From positions 188,171-252,170 of the forward strand of contig CAZHOI010000001.1 in NCBI GenBank assembly GCA_964534365.1: a stretch of DNA of 64,000 nt, written 5' to 3'. The notes under the pieces were generated by a model. That model searched no databases. It was not told the origin of the DNA and saw nothing but the letters and a program-made list of their open reading frames with translations. Positions 4,151-58,551 of the stretch are shown here, in pieces. Positions within the stretch are counted from its first letter, which is position 1; every line of letters begins with the position of its first letter. The position numbers and the translations under genes are program-made. Source of the stretch: an uncultured Candidatus Saccharibacteria bacterium. Lineage in GTDB: Bacteria; Patescibacteriota; Minisyncoccia; Phycocordibacterales; SW-6-46-9.

Positions 4151-4574
4151 AATTAAATTGTTAGTTAGTAACTGGTGTAAGGATTGTAGAAAGCACAAAA
4201 CCCGCAACCAGGTGAGCCGAAGCTCATACGACAGTTTCCCATCGCAACATTAGACACGCCCTGATTACGGGGTTTCTGTGTCTAATGATTTGCAACCATG
4301 CCGACTCTATCGAGGAGGGTTAGGTTGGTAGGTCTATTTTACACCAAAATTTGTCCACTATCCTTGGAACACACAAAAACTAGTTAGCAGGACATTAGCA
4401 GGATAAAGTCAATCTAGAGGACTATTTAAAAACACAAAACAGTAGAAGTAACAGAGAAAGTTTTTAATTTTATGTACCTATTCTTATATGGCAAAAATAA
4501 TAAATAATAGTAAAAAAACGGTAGGAAAACCATAAATACAGTTTTTAACTAAACTAACATGGTACATTTTACAT

Positions 4575-45923: not shown

Positions 45924-45948
45924 GGTGCCAGGGACAGTTGCGTTTATC
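45924..45948 (+). repeat. Solo REP-like element GGTGCCAGGGACAGTTGCGTTTATC
   Basis: Same family as the repeats flanking the RAYT gene at 47.0-47.8 kb. Confidence 0.55.
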
Positions 45949-47048: not shown

Positions 47049-47113
47049 AAGGGTGCCAAAAAGGGTGCCATGCCAAAAAGGGTGCCAAAAGGGTGCCAGG
47101 GACATTTGCGTTA
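47049..47113 (+). repeat. REP-like repeat cluster, left flank of RAYT (tandem AGGGTGCCAAAA units, then GGTGCCAGGGACATTTGCGTT)
   Basis: Inverted relative to the copies at 47784-47840. Confidence 0.6.
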
Positions 47114-47749
47114 ATCTTGTTTTGTTGTCTTGTTAAATTCTTCGTGCCAATTCAACTCAGCAAATGGCTTTGATTTATTTACGCTGTGGCAAACAGCGTC
47201 GCGCTCGGATTCAGTTAAAGGTTTGTTAAGATCATTTAAATATGTGTCTGGTATGTCGATTGGTGGATTTGTTAAATATTTGTTTTTAATTCTGCTTTTC
47301 CCATTACTGCGCAGCCAGGCACTGCCCCAGCGCCAGTCTTCAGCCTTTTCACAGAGACCAGCTCGCAGAGCATTACGCTCGACATACCGCAGTGTTGTAT
47401 AGAAATAATTATCATCGCCAATTAAAAATGATTTGTACCTGCCTTGATATAAATGCCCGTAACCGACTTGATCATGCATAGATTTATACTGTTTTACATG
47501 AGTATTAGTCAGTCGGTTCATAAATTTAGATAAATCACCATTTATTCGAGGTGACAATATCAAATGCCAATGATTGGGCATAATGCAATACCCCAGTAAC
47601 CTCATATCTATCAATTCAACTGTTTCAAATAGTAAATCGTTAAAACATTTATAATCATCATAACTATTGAATATTTGTCTTCTCCCATTACTACGATTAA
47701 GTACGTGATAATAATAGTTTGCTAAATCTATTCGAGGCTGGCGTGGCAT
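47111..47749 (-). CDS. REP-associated tyrosine transposase (RAYT; IS200/IS605-like Y1 HUH transposase, COG1943)
   Basis: MPRQPRIDL...YHV.NR.N....IF...DDY..F..LL...NHWHLIL (HuH)...GHLYQGRYKS (catalytic Tyr region). Confidence 0.8.
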   Translation of the reverse strand: MPRQPRIDLANYYYHVLNRSNGRRQIFNSYDDYKCFNDLLFETVELIDMRLLGYCIMPNHWHLILSPRINGDLSKFMNRLTNTHVKQYKSMHDQVGYGHLYQGRYKSFLIGDDNYFYTTLRYVERNALRAGLCEKAEDWRWGSAWLRSNGKSRIKNKYLTNPPIDIPDTYLNDLNKPLTESERDAVCHSVNKSKPFAELNWHEEFNKTTKQD

Positions 47750-47783: not shown

Positions 47784-47840
47784 CAAACGTCCCTGGCACC
47801 TATTATGGCACCTATTACAAACGTCCCTGGCACCTATTAC
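47784..47840 (-). repeat. REP-like repeats, right flank of RAYT (two copies of AAACGTCCCTGGCACCTATTA)
   Basis: Reverse complement GGTGCCAGGGACGTTTG matches the left-flank repeat. Confidence 0.6.
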
Positions 47841-47908: not shown

Positions 47909-50002
47909 TTATTCTGCGTCGTCTGCGTCGTAATCTACGTCTTCATCTAGAACAATGTAGTCAAAGACTCCATCGTCAGAATCAGTACCTCGACTTGAGT
48001 TTGGAGTACCGTCGCCAGTTTCGCCTTCATTTTCAGAAGTGTACTGAATTGCTTCAATTCGCACGTCAGCATCGCCTTCATCATCGGCACCAGAGAATCG
48101 GAACTCTAGTTCGAACTCTTCGCTGTTACCAGCGTCAACTACGTAGAACTCTTCACCATCAATAGTAACGGTGTCAAGATCTGAGTCGTTTTCTACTTCA
48201 GCTGAAGTAAGAGTGGCTCCAGTAGCAAGAGTAATTTCGTACAAGAACCCGTCATCTGAGGTTTGAGGGCCACCATCAACGTAAGTTCCTGTTTGACTTA
48301 CAGTTAGGCTGGTTGGGATTAGAACATCCTCACCGTCTTCTGAAGCCATAACTTCAATAGTGAATTCTTCACGTGCGTCACCTTCGTTTGAGTCTTCTAG
48401 AGAAGCGTCAATTGCAAAGATAGATAGGGTGTGTTCTTCACCGTTTACAGTACCGGTATCAATATCGGCACCGTCAGGACCATCAGCGTCTAGATTAGTT
48501 AGATCGAATGAAACCATTTGACCATTTTCATAGTCTTCAGCAGCTTCGAATTCTACCCGTACTGACATTTGTACTTCTTCGTCTTCTAGATCGTATTCGT
48601 CATCGAATTCAAATCGTGCAGTGTACTCACGATCATCACCAGAAACAGTTGGGGTTGCTGAGACTAATTCATAGTCGTCATAAGTTTCCCCATCGATGTC
48701 AATTTCTAGATCAGAAACAACTTCGTCAAAAGTTACGTCAGCAGCATCTGCATCAAATAGAGTCACTACTACATCAATACCTTCTAGTTCGAACATGCCA
48801 TCTTCAGCTTCAACATCAGCAACAGTAACCATGTACCATTCTGATTCGTCGTCAGCATCAACAGCAATGGTTGATTCGTCTGGATTTTCTGAAGCTTCAG
48901 ACAAGTCAAGTTCAGCATCATCGCCTTCTTCAACTACTTCAAAGTCAGCAGTGTCAGAACCTGATGAGTATTGTTGAATTCCTTCTGAGTCTTCGCCGCG
49001 GACAGCACGATCTTCAACAGATAGTCTCCATTGTGCATCACCGTCTTCGGCACCATCAACATTGTTGTTGGCGGTAATCCAAATTTCGATTTCTACGTCT
49101 TCATCTTCACGAACCACGTAGTCTAGACCTGATACACGGAATTCACCGTCATCTTCATCTAGGTATTCGTCTTCGTCAGATAGATCAAAATCTTCTAATT
49201 CGTCACCGTCAACTGCTAAAGTCAAAGTGTCGAATACTTCCCATGGCTCATCTTCGGCGTCAGTGCTTGAAGTTGGGCCAACGTATTCTAGTGTGAAGTC
49301 GATTCGGTTAACTTCTACGTCACCGTCTTCGACATCGAATTCAAGAGTGGCAACATGTACCATCTCGCCTTCTTCTGCATCGTCTTCTTCATCTAGTTCA
49401 ACGTCGCCGATTTCAGCTTCGCCGCCTGATAGACGATCATCGTCATCATCCATGTCATCGTCATCATCCATGTCGTCATCGTCGTCTCCGCCGTTGTCAA
49501 CAGGAGGTTGAGGAGCAGGCATAGTCATGTCAGCACACATTTCGCGTACCGCATCACGTGAACCAGCGCCAAAATATCCAGTTCCAGATACAAGACCTAG
49601 AGGGGTAAGGATAGTAGCTGCATTAGCTTCTTGGAAGCGAGTTACTGCATTAGCAGTCAATGAACCATAGTACATTGTTTCCATGCCAGGTGATCCAGCG
49701 CCAGTTGCGGCAACTTGGAATCCAGCATCGTTTAGGAACTCTTGTAAATTCATTACATCAGCTCCTTGTGAACCTCGTGAAAGGTCACGTAGGTAGTCAA
49801 CGTCACAACCGCGATTCGATGAAGAAACAGTAGTTGTGGTAGTTGTTCCACCTAGTAGAGACATGAACAAGGCAACTTCTGTGTCTGATAGACCAGCAGC
49901 GCGTAGTTCAGCCTCTGAAATACTTTGAGCGTCAACCAAGCCAGGACTAAAGAATAGAACCATAGCTAGGGTTAACAACCCAGTAAATACTTTATTAAGC
50001 AT
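47909..50002 (-). CDS. Secreted protein with N-terminal peptidoglycan-binding-like domain and a very long D/E-rich acidic region
   Basis: Signal peptide; GADVMNLQEFLNDAGF...YYGSLTANAVTRFQEANA resembles PG_binding_1; ~500 aa of acidic low complexity. Confidence 0.65.
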   Translation of the reverse strand: MLNKVFTGLLTLAMVLFFSPGLVDAQSISEAELRAAGLSDTEVALFMSLLGGTTTTTTVSSSNRGCDVDYLRDLSRGSQGADVMNLQEFLNDAGFQVAATGAGSPGMETMYYGSLTANAVTRFQEANAATILTPLGLVSGTGYFGAGSRDAVREMCADMTMPAPQPPVDNGGDDDDDMDDDDDMDDDDDRLSGGEAEIGDVELDEEDDAEEGEMVHVATLEFDVEDGDVEVNRIDFTLEYVGPTSSTDAEDEPWEVFDTLTLAVDGDELEDFDLSDEDEYLDEDDGEFRVSGLDYVVREDEDVEIEIWITANNNVDGAEDGDAQWRLSVEDRAVRGEDSEGIQQYSSGSDTADFEVVEEGDDAELDLSEASENPDESTIAVDADDESEWYMVTVADVEAEDGMFELEGIDVVVTLFDADAADVTFDEVVSDLEIDIDGETYDDYELVSATPTVSGDDREYTARFEFDDEYDLEDEEVQMSVRVEFEAAEDYENGQMVSFDLTNLDADGPDGADIDTGTVNGEEHTLSIFAIDASLEDSNEGDAREEFTIEVMASEDGEDVLIPTSLTVSQTGTYVDGGPQTSDDGFLYEITLATGATLTSAEVENDSDLDTVTIDGEEFYVVDAGNSEEFELEFRFSGADDEGDADVRIEAIQYTSENEGETGDGTPNSSRGTDSDDGVFDYIVLDEDVDYDADDAE

Positions 50003-50180
50003 TATTAATTGTTTTGTGTCTGACTATTAGCCAGAGCACATATTTATTGGTAATAGTAATTAGTTAACAGCATTAAAGGCACAAGCCCTTCTGAAACTAA
50101 TTACTGTTTAATCTTTTAATAAGATTTGGTAATTTGTCAGCACTTTCAGCCAACCTGTTTTTTTTGAAGTCAAGCTTCAA

Positions 50181-50489
50181 ACGCAGTGGCTGGCACCTTT
50201 GGTGCCTGTCACTTTAGTGAAGAAGCCTGTCTTTTTCCAGCCGCGCGAGGCTAGAAAGATACGGGTCGTTAAGGTAACACCGACCATAGGTCAATGTCAC
50301 CGCACTCCCCCAATCTTAATAGGTTGGCGATTCGTCGGCCAAAATCTAGTTAAAGATTAAAGCCATGGAATGACAAACCGCCAAACCAAATAGTTTTTGA
50401 CGTTTTTTCGGTATTTTGTTAACTAGCCCTGCTCGCTAAAGTGGCAGGCACCCTAGGATTTATGAATAAATCCAGATGAGCCAGCCACT
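50181..50489. repeat. Long-range imperfect inverted repeat (~37-nt arms) enclosing ~215 bp; MITE-like element or structured ncRNA
   Basis: 50181-50217 GCAGTGGCTGGCACCTTTGGTGCCTGTCACTTTAGTG is complementary to 50432-50450 plus 50478-50489; a minus-strand terminator-like hairpin and T-run lie at 50152-50178. Confidence 0.5.
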
Positions 50490-51031
50490 GCGCTCGCTAT
50501 ATAGCCAATTAAACCTTTGTCAAAGAGCTAACTGGTTTGGCGGCAGATTAATATCTGTAGCACCAACCAATTAAGGATTGGATCAATCTGATCCGGTTAG
50601 GGAGACCAATAGTTGATATTAGTCCCCCTATGCGATTCAGTTGTTTTCTTTAGTTATTTATCTTTAGTTATTTATTGGGCCTATTTTGCTGGGCCGATAC
50701 TAGTGGTGACGAGAATAGATAGATTTGATTACGTTGACAAAATTAATAATTCGTTATTTTAACTATATGATATTTTGTACAATTTGGCAAAGTTCAGGAC
50801 TTGATTAGATTAAATGCTTGATCCAATAATAGTCAGCCGAACTACCAATACCTATAGATTACCTTATCAACAGCCAAACATTAGTTAGCTGGTCTAACCC
50901 TGGGGATAATTGAGTTATTAATTCAAGGCTGATATCAAATAATAACTCAGTAATTAGGAAAAACTAGGAAATCAGGGCATTTTAGCAATATCAATAATCA
51001 AATATAGAGTTTTCTTAAAGGGATATTATTA

Positions 51032-51979
51032 TTATTGATTAAGCTCTTGATTAAGGGTTATTCCCTCCCCCAAAGTATAGCTGCTCCAGCGCCTTTTGCC
51101 ATGTTTTTCCAGTAGTCCGTCCTCGACCATACTTTTTAATTCTCGCTGCATGGTTTTCTGTGAACAGCCCTCGATTACTTCCTGGACATCATTTATAGTG
51201 ATTTCTTCATTATCACTAAACAAACCCAAGATTCCACGGCGTCTTTTGGAATGATTACTGCCGTGTCGTCGACGGGAACGTCCACTATTAGATTTAGGTC
51301 GATTCATATGATTGTCAGCACCGGCAACAGCTTTAGGGTCATTTATTTGACTCCCTACACTAGAAAATTTATGAATTTGATCGGTATTATTGCTAGTCGT
51401 TTGATCAGAATCAGGGATATTGCTTTCAAACCCTAGTTGCTTGGCAATTTGATCGGGGTGCTGGCGATTAGTGTCTTTAAAGAAATTAGATTCGAAAGTA
51501 TGGCCAGGCTTATCAGACATACTAGCTAATGTCTTTTTGAGTGTGGTCATTTCTGATTCGATGACCCCATAATTCATTTCCGACATTAACCCGGCTCTTA
51601 CCCCGATTTGCAAAATCGCTATTAATTCAGGAAATTGTCGGACAATAATCTGATTAAGGATATTCAATTTAGCTTGATCTTGAATCTGAACCCGATATAG
51701 CTCGTCAATTAAGTTGAGTGATTTTTCCCTGACTTTTTGACGAAACGGCTCGTTAATATCCAGGTAATTTGTTAATACGTACAATGCTTGGGCAATTTTT
51801 TTAATTTTACTGACTACAAAGGCTTGTTTTTGAGTATCATCTTTATCAGACATTATTAATCCTGCATCACTAGGATTACTATCATTTTTATTACTATTAG
51901 CCGAATTGCTATGTCCCATGGCTGTACTATACGTTACTATCTGTAATTTATAAAAGACATAATAATTCCTCAAAGACAT
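51032..51979 (-). CDS. Hypothetical protein with C-terminal winged-helix-like DNA-binding segment
   Basis: C-terminal ...TMQRELKSMVEDGLLEKHGKRRWSSYTL; alternative start at 51919. Confidence 0.5.
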   Translation of the reverse strand: MSLRNYYVFYKLQIVTYSTAMGHSNSANSNKNDSNPSDAGLIMSDKDDTQKQAFVVSKIKKIAQALYVLTNYLDINEPFRQKVREKSLNLIDELYRVQIQDQAKLNILNQIIVRQFPELIAILQIGVRAGLMSEMNYGVIESEMTTLKKTLASMSDKPGHTFESNFFKDTNRQHPDQIAKQLGFESNIPDSDQTTSNNTDQIHKFSSVGSQINDPKAVAGADNHMNRPKSNSGRSRRRHGSNHSKRRRGILGLFSDNEEITINDVQEVIEGCSQKTMQRELKSMVEDGLLEKHGKRRWSSYTLGEGITLNQELNQ

Positions 51980-56902: not shown

Positions 56903-56947
56903 AATTTGATTATATCAAAAACCACCTGTGATTTTAGTGGCTGGTGA

Positions 56948-57154
56948 TTATTTGATCACGTATGGCATTAATGCCATGAATCGAGCGTGCTTTATTGCTT
57001 TGGTGAGCGAGCGTTGGTTATTTGCGTGTGTTCCGGTCACCTTGGCCGGCATTATTCGACCGGTCGCATTTACAAATTTTTTCAGTGTTGCGATATCTTT
57101 GTAATCAATGTGATTGATATTGTGTTTTTGGAAGTAGTCTTGTCCTTTTGCCAT
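56948..57154 (-). CDS. rpsR: 30S ribosomal protein S18
   Basis: [50 protein letters not shown]. Confidence 0.85.
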
Positions 57155-57193
57155 ATCTTTTTTCGTTAGATAATTTTAGAAAATTATCTGCCT

Positions 57194-57225
57194 CATGGCA
57201 TAGATTTTTTTACAAAATCTATTAG
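57194..57225. repeat. Palindromic motif ATGGCATAGATTTTTTTACAAAATCTATTAGC, copy 2 of 2
   Basis: Near-identical to 21331-21361; lies 40 bp upstream of the rpsR start. Confidence 0.5.
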
Positions 57226-57508
57226 CAGTCATAATCTAAAATTTTTACTTTAATTAATATTATTTTGATTTTTATTTAGATGAAGTACGCGGCTCAAAAA
57301 AAATTAATTTGGAAGCGTATGCGCAATACGATTAAAAATTAATTATTATGCAGCAACAAAGTAATTCGCTAAATAAATTTTTAATAATTATTTTAGTAAA
57401 TTTAGACAATGAAATTCGAGGAAGTAGAGAATATTTTGGAGACATATATATAATACGTTGAGGAAATTATTAAACGCTACTGACCAAGAATTTCGAAGTA
57501 TCAATTTT

Positions 57509-57972: not shown

Positions 57973-58455
57973 CTATTCTTCATTTTCTTCTGTTTTTTGC
58001 TCCGTTTTTGGTTCCGTATTATCCTCGCCTTCTGATTCTTCATCGTCTGATTCGTCTTCAAACTCTTCTTCATCAGGGTTATATTCGTCAGTCAAGGTTG
58101 TAACAAAATCCTCGCGAGTGGTTTTAATAATTAAAAACCTGATAATTGATTTGTTAGCCTTGATAGTTGATTCTAAGTCGCTAATTAATTCTGGATCTTG
58201 TTTGAATTTAATCCAATTGAAATAAGCATCTTTATAATCCCGGCGTTTACCTTCAGTTTTAACGGTGATCTCATAAGCCAGATTACGCAATCTGGGTTCA
58301 CCACTAGAAAGCACCGCGCCGGATCCCTGAGCGACCGTGTCGCCCAATGAAGTGAATAGTTTGTCCACTTTGTCTTCGGAAAGCTTGGGGTCGACCAGAG
58401 TTGCTAGTTCATAGACCACCAGCTTGGAATCCTGGTTTTGGTTATTTTCTGTCAT
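57973..58455 (-). CDS. rpsF: 30S ribosomal protein S6 with acidic C-terminal tail
   Basis: S6-like core (VVYELATLVDP...RLRNLAYEI...); conserved rpsF-ssb-rpsR order; start taken at MTENN (58455) because the ORF-track start lies inside the repeat. Confidence 0.8.
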   Translation of the reverse strand: MTENNQNQDSKLVVYELATLVDPKLSEDKVDKLFTSLGDTVAQGSGAVLSSGEPRLRNLAYEITVKTEGKRRDYKDAYFNWIKFKQDPELISDLESTIKANKSIIRFLIIKTTREDFVTTLTDEYNPDEEEFEDESDDEESEGEDNTEPKTEQKTEENEE

Positions 58456-58474
58456 AACTCGCCGATTGTAACAT

Positions 58475-58551
58475 GTCATCCGTCATCCGTCATCCGTCAT
58501 CCGTCATCCGTCATCTGTCATCCGTCATCTGTCATCTGTCATCTGTCATCT
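58475..58551. repeat. Heptanucleotide tandem repeat (GTCATCC/GTCATCT) x 11
   Basis: Eleven perfect 7-mer units read directly from the sequence, between the tatD stop and the rpsF start. Confidence 0.9.

Follow-up and report, generated by a model that had tools for sequence, protein, structure and literature searches.

We analysed a 64,000-nucleotide (nt) stretch of the genome of an uncultured Candidatus Saccharibacteria bacterium, referred to throughout as the window (GenBank assembly GCA_964534365.1, contig CAZHOI010000001.1, positions 188,171 to 252,170). In it, a long gap separates the gene of a 315-amino-acid (aa) winged-helix regulator from that of a 697-aa surface protein. The minus strand of this gap encodes a new structured RNA family that is absent from Rfam and belongs to a rare Patescibacteria-like lineage; its function is putative. 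Sequence comparison makes it probable that the RNA is a structured 5' leader of about 750 nt in the surface-protein mRNA, running on the minus strand from about 50755 to 50003. A large inverted repeat with arms here called X and Y, around which a preliminary description of the gap had been built, is specific to this lineage. That description had placed the gap upstream of the regulator gene; it in fact lies downstream of that gene (51979->51032) and precedes the 697-aa gene (50002->47909), both genes being on the minus strand. The gap was rightly described as a gene-free region of about 1 kb, as it measures 1029 nt (50003-51031) and contains no open reading frame (ORF) kept among relatives. 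A stretch of about 600 nt at 56903-57508 is likewise free of ORFs of at least 100 aa, so the gap, which exceeds all others in this part of the window, is not the sole long one.

Six distinct gaps were compared (the window, L004, L007, L010, L017 and L019), together with a partial seventh (L106). The gene order, with ftsK divergent from the regulator gene and the latter followed by the gap and a gene of ~700 aa, was found in L004, L007 and L010, and in L017 and L019 as far as these short contigs reached. In the full-length alignment, identity among the regulators of the compared lineages is only 37-46%, and the gap is 735-891 nt long in the relatives. The RNA was present upstream of the ~700-aa gene in the window, L004, L007, L010, L017, L019 and L106, which is every lineage from which downstream sequence was recovered.

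The preliminary description had counted a lack of structural covariation in relatives among the findings that would refute it; such covariation was found. In the 3' module, 16 of the 32 pairs were changed on both sides among seven sequences, and 88% of the cells were paired, compared with 30-43% when slid; for hairpin B, 8 of 17 pairs were changed on both sides and 91% of the cells were paired. Neither result was matched in shuffles (0/500 each), a control that ignores phylogeny. Two of the 11 pairs of helix P-C were changed on both sides, and one of its columns reads GC, CG, UA and AU among the six lineages. Hairpins E and F together had 6 of 19 pairs changed on both sides, all of them in E (12 pairs), with F invariant. 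When the minus strand of the window was read as RNA, G-U pairs in the helices outnumbered A-C oppositions by 60 to 15. This excess indicates that the minus strand is the RNA strand and disfavours a purely DNA-level element.

A region without functional RNA structure, serving as an operator array for the winged-helix regulator or DnaA or as a replication origin, would fit the conservation of a DnaA-box-like motif after the regulator gene, the presence of palindromes and the recurrence of GTAAT/ATTAC motifs. It would leave unexplained why pairing is kept while helix sequence changes, and the strand-specific 60:15 ratio is meaningless for duplex DNA. We regard this account as very unlikely. A replication origin in particular was rejected, as there is no GC-skew turning point and DnaA boxes are not enriched. 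The DnaA-box-like motif itself occurs in the gap of every lineage (L004, L007, L010, L017, L019, L021, L104 and L107; 50901-50909 on the minus strand of the window), as TTATCCCCA in the window and as TTTTCCACA, TTGTCCACA, TTATCCACA or TATCCACA in relatives. It lies shortly after the regulator stop codon in leaders of the window type and about 300 nt into the gap in L104 and L107.

The structure is on the same strand as the downstream gene, and this linkage is conserved. A terminator scan of 49900-51100 on both strands returned 0 sites; the same scan found clean terminators elsewhere in the genome, including directly after the 697-aa gene. Covarying helices with G-U pairs run through the palindrome CTGACTAATAGTCAG to 12 nt before the AUG, and across lineages the last hairpin ends 12-17 nt before it. 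A leader is favoured because no terminator intervenes between the promoter-like site and the ATG and because covarying helices reach to 12 nt before the AUG. The RNA would then have its 5' end near 50755 and extend up to the last base ahead of the 697-aa gene's ATG. A TATAGT/TATACT/TATCAT hexamer is present 27-33 nt before the first conserved block (A1) in four of six homologues. A small conserved ORF within the leader was considered and rejected, since positions and lengths vary and none is present on the sense strand in L010.

Several points speak against a leader. The covariation was obtained from only six or seven distinct sequences with a shuffle control blind to phylogeny, and the putative promoter is a consensus match recognisable in only four of six lineages. 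The perfect palindrome CTGACTAATAGTCAG has bases in common with a -10-like TAATAGT located about 20 nt before the ATG. An operator and a second promoter might be combined here, in which case the upstream RNA would be a separate transcript. Upstream of many ORFs in 40000-64000, a TATAAT-like box lies 6-8 nt from the start codon and a Shine-Dalgarno sequence is lacking, suggesting leaderless mRNAs. Most genes of this genome look leaderless, so a 750-nt leader would be unusual. Finally, a clamp formed by arms X and Y is the predicted minimum free energy (MFE) fold at equilibrium and may matter functionally in this species.

The corresponding alternative is an independent, stable noncoding RNA (ncRNA), about 550-700 nt in length, that would work in trans or serve as a scaffold for proteins, with the promoter of the surface-protein gene within CTGACTAATAGTCAG, which would be the operator of the regulator. 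The size, the many conserved helices and the invariant blocks are like those of large ornate bacterial ncRNAs. Regulator and RNA strictly co-occur, the symmetry of the palindrome that overlaps TAATAGT is kept in L019 (CCAACTAATAGTTGG), and the genome favours very short or absent leaders. However, no terminator or other 3'-end signal is found before the palindrome, though this genome uses intrinsic terminators, a sigma-70 scan calls no minus-strand promoter at 50015-50060, and the covarying helices with their G-U pairs continue through the palindrome. We consider an independent ncRNA rather unlikely, and a leader of the surface-protein mRNA the better account.

Predicted folding was exceptionally stable. 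For 50150-50500, the minus-strand fold had an energy of -153.1 kcal/mol (z = -11.1, 0/100 shuffles) and the plus-strand fold -134.4 kcal/mol (z = -7.3), a difference of 19 kcal/mol in favour of the minus strand. The minus-strand fold of 50150-50770 (621 nt) had z = -11.6, and the homologous regions of L010 and L004 reached z = -9.5 and -9.2, respectively. The preliminary description had proposed a minus-strand RNA of ~310 nt with paired ends that stops at a terminator. A structured RNA on the minus strand is supported by the strand-asymmetric folding energy, the G-U bias and the covariation. The paired ends, by contrast, are lineage-specific and clash with the family helix P-C, and the conserved RNA instead spans ~50755 to the start codon at 50002. 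The supposed terminator corresponds to the minus-strand hairpin UUUGAAG-CUUGA-CUUCAAA (50157-50181), after which comes A8 where a U run would be required; it is no terminator on that strand. Assigning a "terminator" to the wrong strand can thus mislead.

Rfam 15, which covers RNase P, tmRNA, 6S, SRP, riboswitches and OLE/GOLLD/ROOL/HEARO, gave no match in the region at gathering thresholds. At E <= 10 only chance-level matches to miRNA and snoRNA hairpins were obtained, and five homologous loci gave 0 matches at E <= 0.5. The preliminary description, too, had found no consensus motifs of RNase P, tmRNA, SRP or 6S. The only non-tRNA Rfam match in the window was a LOOT RNA (RF03000) at 4213-4326 on the minus strand (64.6 bits, gathering threshold 46.4). 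A search of the literature on structured RNAs of Patescibacteria and on the LOOT motif returned nothing useful.

The conserved features are collected in Table 1. From 5' to 3', the shared blocks occur in the order UGUCAAYGUAAU; hairpin B; CGCCAAA..CUUUGACAA; UUUGGCG; a second CGCCAA; AAGAU-hairpin-AUCUU; AUCUUUCUAGCCUCGCGCGGCUGGAA; an A-rich linker; the hairpin with the UGAAAGU loop; AAAUUAC..AAAUCUUAU; the CCGAA / UAAYGCGG helix; UUAUUAC.A.UAAA; and the last hairpin. The GGCGG of the P-C 3' strand is also used by the next hairpin (50326-50382), which closes on the second CGCCAA, so the two CGCCAA copies would compete for one UUGGCG. Near the 3' end, two conserved AUUAC motifs could each pair with the GUAAU of block A1, and a pairing of GUAAU with AUUAC appears in the MFE folds of L004, L007, L017, L019 and the full-length window RNA; covariation is impossible here because the sequence is invariant. 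For the UGAAAGU-loop hairpin, the compensatory variants GUUGGC/GCUGAC, GCUCGA/UCGAGC, GUUCGC/GCGAAC and GCCUGG/CCAGGC were read by eye. The TTGACA in CUUUGACAA was considered as a -35 box and rejected, as no conserved -10 element was seen by eye 16-18 nt downstream. The variable 5' part of the leader contains two copies of a 14-nt tandem repeat, TTTAGTTATTTAT (50649-50675).

Table 1. Features of the gap and its neighbourhood, in window coordinates.
Feature	Position	Strand	Remarks
RAYT-type Y1 transposase gene	47111-47749	-	Pfam Y1_Tnp; NCBIfam REP_Tyr_transpos 64.3 bits, below the 80-bit cutoff
Intrinsic terminator after the 697-aa gene	47880->47861	-	
697-aa gene, secreted product	47909..50002	-	Signal peptide, PG_binding_1 domain, tandem Ig-like beta-sandwiches (Pfam)
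Whole proposed RNA, a conserved, highly structured putative leader	50003..50755	-	Conserved blocks and helices, fold, no terminator, no Rfam match
3' module	50015..50135	-	AAAUUAC..AAAUCUUAU, long helix, single strand, helix 3
3' module, helix 3, UGUG.CUGGCUAAUAGUCAG.CACA	50015-50040	-	12 nt before AUG
3' module, conserved single strand AUUACCAAUAAAUA	50041-50054	-	
3' module, long helix with CCGAA / UAAYGCGG	50055-50107	-	
Conserved 6-bp hairpin, loop UGAAAGU	50136..50154	-	
Hairpin UUUGAAG-CUUGA-CUUCAAA, then A8	50157..50181	-	A-rich linker AAAAAC kept in relatives
Inverted repeat, full extent	50182-50227 / 50426-50493		Exceptionally stable minus-strand fold
Arm Y (left arm of the preliminary description), reverse complement of X minus tip	50182..50227	-	Local fold GGCACC-AAA-GGUGCC
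Invariant 26-mer AUCUUUCUAGCCUCGCGCGGCUGGAA with hairpin F (CUAGCC-UCGCGC-GGCUGG)	50235..50260	-	Identical in six lineages
Hairpin E: AAGAU, variable covarying stem, AUCUU	50256..50317	-	Enlarged in the window genome
Helix P-C, 3' strand CUAUUUGGUUUGGCGG	50378..50393	-	
Arm X (right arm of the preliminary description), imperfect palindrome	50426..50493	-	18-nt tip hairpin 50456-50473; can fold locally
Conserved loop motif CUUUGACAA after P-C 5' strand	50514-50527	-	
Helix P-C, 5' strand CCGCCAAACCAGUUAG	50528..50543	-	Pairs with 50378-50393
Hairpin B, two-part, conserved shoulders UUCG..UAG / CUAACCCGGAUC	50588..50640	-	
Block A1, UGUCAAYGUAAU	50728..50739	-	Kept in all six leaders that include the region
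Promoter-like site TTGCCA-17-TATAGT	50762..50790 (50790->50762)	-	Scan match 10/12; start predicted ~7 nt downstream
Regulator gene, 315 aa	51032..51979	-	Weak winged helix-turn-helix matches

The inverted repeat was recovered by a repeat search as two segments, 50196-50220 / 50433-50457 (25 nt, 84% complementary) and 50182-50202 / 50472-50492 (21 nt, 86% complementary). The tip hairpin GGATTTA-TGAA-TAAATCC, reported to interrupt the right arm, is present as an 18-nt structure, and the hairpins described between the arms are there too. The arm-to-arm duplex was significant as RNA (z = -6.3, 0/200 shuffles); in a harsh local-alignment test at the DNA level the result was weaker, with the score reached by 6 of 200 dinucleotide shuffles. 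X and Y represent a single imperfect palindrome of ~50 nt, present twice in inverted orientation, with the signature strings CGCAGTGGCTGGC..GGTGCCTGYCACTTTAG. Compared with the reverse complement of Y, X has a block identical at 13 of 13 positions (CGCAGTGGCTGGC), then a 21-nt tip found in X only, then GGTGCCTG(C/T)CACTTTAG(C/T)GA with 18 of 20 positions identical. The local folds of X and Y have energies of -32.3 and -16.5 kcal/mol, respectively. Because the arms are inverted copies, they pair better with each other than within themselves.

Pairing between X and Y is not nested with helix P-C, because X lies inside P-C (50528-50543:50378-50393) and Y beyond the invariant 26-mer. The MFE of the 740-nt RNA was -259.5 kcal/mol with X:Y paired; when this pairing was forbidden it was -255.5 kcal/mol, and the local X and Y hairpins and P-C were restored. 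Complementarity between the X and Y zones was significant in the window, marginal in L010 (z = -2.5) and absent in L004, L007, L019 and L017. X:Y pairing was accordingly rejected as a feature of the family. The position of X is occupied in L010, L019 and L004 by another conserved hairpin, GGCAUAGAUUUC..GAAAUCUAUUAGC; at that of Y, each lineage has its own hairpin or none. The repeat is thus a lineage feature set on two variable positions flanking the conserved core, and the RNA is not defined by it as a closing stem. Evidently, a recent, species-specific decoration of an older conserved RNA can take the form of a striking inverted repeat.

As a possible origin of the repeat, the preliminary description had named a miniature inverted-repeat transposable element (MITE), a non-autonomous transposon of ~310 bp that carries terminal inverted repeats of ~37 bp and has entered the intergenic region. 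The unit has that size, its arms (50182-50220 and 50433-50492, 84-86% complementary) resemble terminal inverted repeats enclosing ~215 bp, and a transposase-family gene is nearby. The checks that had been suggested, further copies of the arm and target-site duplications, turned out otherwise. The 64-kb window contains the arm once, 103 other fetched loci do not contain it, and a BLAST search of the unit against plasmid and phage collections gave no match. No direct repeat flanks 50182-50493, where the flanks read ...CTTCAAA| and |CTCGCTATA; a repeat TAGCGAGC around arm X falls within the X/Y homology and hence is no target-site duplication. Moreover, the interior (the P-C 3' strand, hairpins D, E and F and the invariant 26-mer) is orthologous, at the same position, in relatives without the arms, and one of the sequences it pairs with, 50528-50543, falls outside the supposed element. 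We give the MITE a probability close to negligible.

It is possible, short of being the likelier case, that the arms are palindromes of the repetitive extragenic palindromic (REP) or REPIN (paired REP) kind moved by a nearby REP-associated tyrosine transposase (RAYT), or a local inverted duplication made by template switching, with little or no function in the RNA. Such an insertion at two tolerant hairpin sites of the leader would be compatible with a leader. As expected of inverted copies, pairing is imperfect within the arms and near-perfect between them, and the arms are missing from all relatives. At a distance of 2.4 kb there is a RAYT gene with GGTGCCAGGGAC repeats on its flanks; GGTGCCAGCCAC and GGTGCCTGCCAC occur in the arms. 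In contrast to typical REP systems, the 64 kb contain just two copies, the other fetched loci lack them altogether, and a 215-nt spacer of conserved RNA core separates the pair. The repeats beside the RAYT gene do not share the palindromic form of the arms. The arms have only CTGGCACC in common with the REP motif (p ~0.05), and such a shared 8-mer was also found in 88 of 2000 shuffles and 22 of 349 other windows. Because this match occurs in 4-6% of controls, a REP origin is possible but unsupported, and local template switching would be an equally good origin.

Besides the GGTGCCAGGGAC repeats, four AGGGTGCCA units flank the RAYT gene (45924-45935, 47050-47103, 47789-47834). A Y1 transposase gene also lies downstream of the ~680-aa gene in L103, L106 and L107, in L106 with the same 12-mer flanks. 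This recurrence of the gene and the 12-mer in other lineages suggests that gene and repeats are vertically inherited.

The family is narrowly distributed. A covariance model of the 3' module (R1) scored the window at 134.6 bits and matched only its own seven training loci, with no match in the diverged leaders L103-L105. The 315-aa regulator has only 8 homologue clusters among 5.8 billion proteins, and every regulator lineage with enough downstream sequence carries the RNA, in diverged form in L021/L022. The more distant P0008 lineage (L021) has a diverged 5' block and keeps CUUUGACAAU, the P-C strands and the same architecture. A 20-mer derived from the invariant 26-mer had 0 matches in 185,579 reference genomes. 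In metagenomes, the invariant 20-mer TTCTAGCCTCGCGCGGCTGG was found in 6 contigs, which represent family members and one chance lineage; the GC-rich contigs L013 and L016 were set aside as chance matches, as they have nothing else in common with the family apart from the exact 20-mer.

The Patescibacteria lineages L103, L104/L105 and L107 have the same gene order and a gap of 700-1400 nt, which in L104 folds with z = -7.6. Their gaps have a 3' module related to that of the window type; beyond that, only C(A/U)UUGACAA is common to the window type and L104 and L107, and it is not found in L103. A second, diverged type of long structured gap before the same gene family was thus observed at L103:2599-4000, L104:3300-4000 and L107:3207-4000, with the common 3' module GTTAGTGATATTACGTAAGTG..GTGATAA..TTAC.AATATGAATTAATTCATATT.

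The organism probably belongs to a rare lineage of Patescibacteria that is unrepresented among species representatives, a placement based on RecA, on the names of homologues of the 697-aa protein and on the absence of the 20-mer from reference genomes. The best identities of RecA were 61-69%, and the four best-scoring matches and several others came from Patescibacteria metagenome-assembled genomes. The homologue names are needed for this placement because proteobacterial RecA matches were equally identical. None of the loci obtained in a RecA-based scan contain the RNA. Identical copies of the window were present in two sequencing runs.

The 697-aa protein is most likely a wall-anchored surface protein or adhesin. 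Its AlphaFold model has a predicted local distance difference test (pLDDT) score of 74.9, and Foldseek matched it to integrin legs, PrgB, AgI/II and pilins. It has more than 360 homologues, and the few with a source name are from Patescibacteria or Paceibacterota. In the regulator, a helical domain at the N terminus is followed by a disordered linker, a basic patch and, at the C terminus, a winged helix that is strongly conserved; the protein is probably DNA-binding. Its true start is probably M21 at 51919, behind a TATAGT. The equivalent protein in L104 has only the winged helix in common with it. Sequence searches of the PDB with both neighbouring proteins were uninformative. Elsewhere in the window, a tandem repeat of a 7-nt unit, acggatgacggatgacggatgacgg, abuts the ATG of the ORF at 57973-58479 (~58480-58505, minus strand).

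Long structured 5' untranslated regions (UTRs) are known from mRNAs for envelope and S-layer proteins, such as the stabilising 5' UTR of ompA and that of Lactobacillus slpA. The RNA described here is similar in that it lies directly upstream, on the same strand, of the gene of a probably abundant wall-anchored protein, is rich in hairpins and is followed by no terminator. It differs from those UTRs in being several-fold longer and in having a multi-helix core, invariant single strands and competing pairings, all of which are kept among lineages with protein identities below 50%; a simple stabilising hairpin is far less elaborate. With OLE, GOLLD, ROOL, HEARO and raiA it shares a size above 500 nt, many covarying helices, invariant blocks and a narrow, uncultivated lineage; unlike them, it has no Rfam match, occupies a fixed site before one gene family and is structured up to the start codon. 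The complementarity of UUUGGCG to two CGCCAA and of one GUAAU to two AUUAC, in cis to a gene, recalls riboswitch and attenuator leaders. Compared with these, it is much larger, has no terminator and no platform sequestering a Shine-Dalgarno sequence, and matches no known aptamer.

We propose that transcription would start at the TATAGT promoter downstream of the winged-helix regulator gene. The transcript would pass through at least eight conserved helices and the invariant single strands UGUCAAYGUAAU, CUUUGACAA, the 26-mer with CUAGCC-UCGCGC-GGCUGG and UUAUUAC.A.UAAA, and would read through into the surface-protein gene with no terminator intervening. The leader may set the amount or the translation of the surface-protein mRNA. 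The switch elements would most likely be the conserved competing pairings, in which UUGGCG has two possible CGCCAA partners and the 5' GUAAU has two 3' AUUAC partners, and the invariant loops CUUUGACAA and UCGCGC are candidate contacts for a protein or ligand. In this species, X and Y would add either two extra local hairpins, compatible with P-C, or a clamp around the core.

Patescibacteria are ultra-small, mostly uncultivated and believed to be host-attached. To our knowledge, little is established about gene regulation in these candidate-phyla-radiation bacteria, and a literature search returned nothing relevant. On a broader and distinctly tentative view, the RNA might represent a new, Patescibacteria-specific class of large ornate RNAs (0.5-0.75 kb), with diverged versions in L103, L104/L105 and L107. 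Such an RNA might be a multi-helix switch before the main wall-anchored surface or adhesin gene next to ftsK, sensing a cellular or host signal or binding the co-inherited winged-helix protein. An RNA with strong covariation and without an Rfam entry, located between ftsK, a lineage-specific regulator and a surface protein with Ig-like repeats, offers a testable handle on how these bacteria may control their surface.

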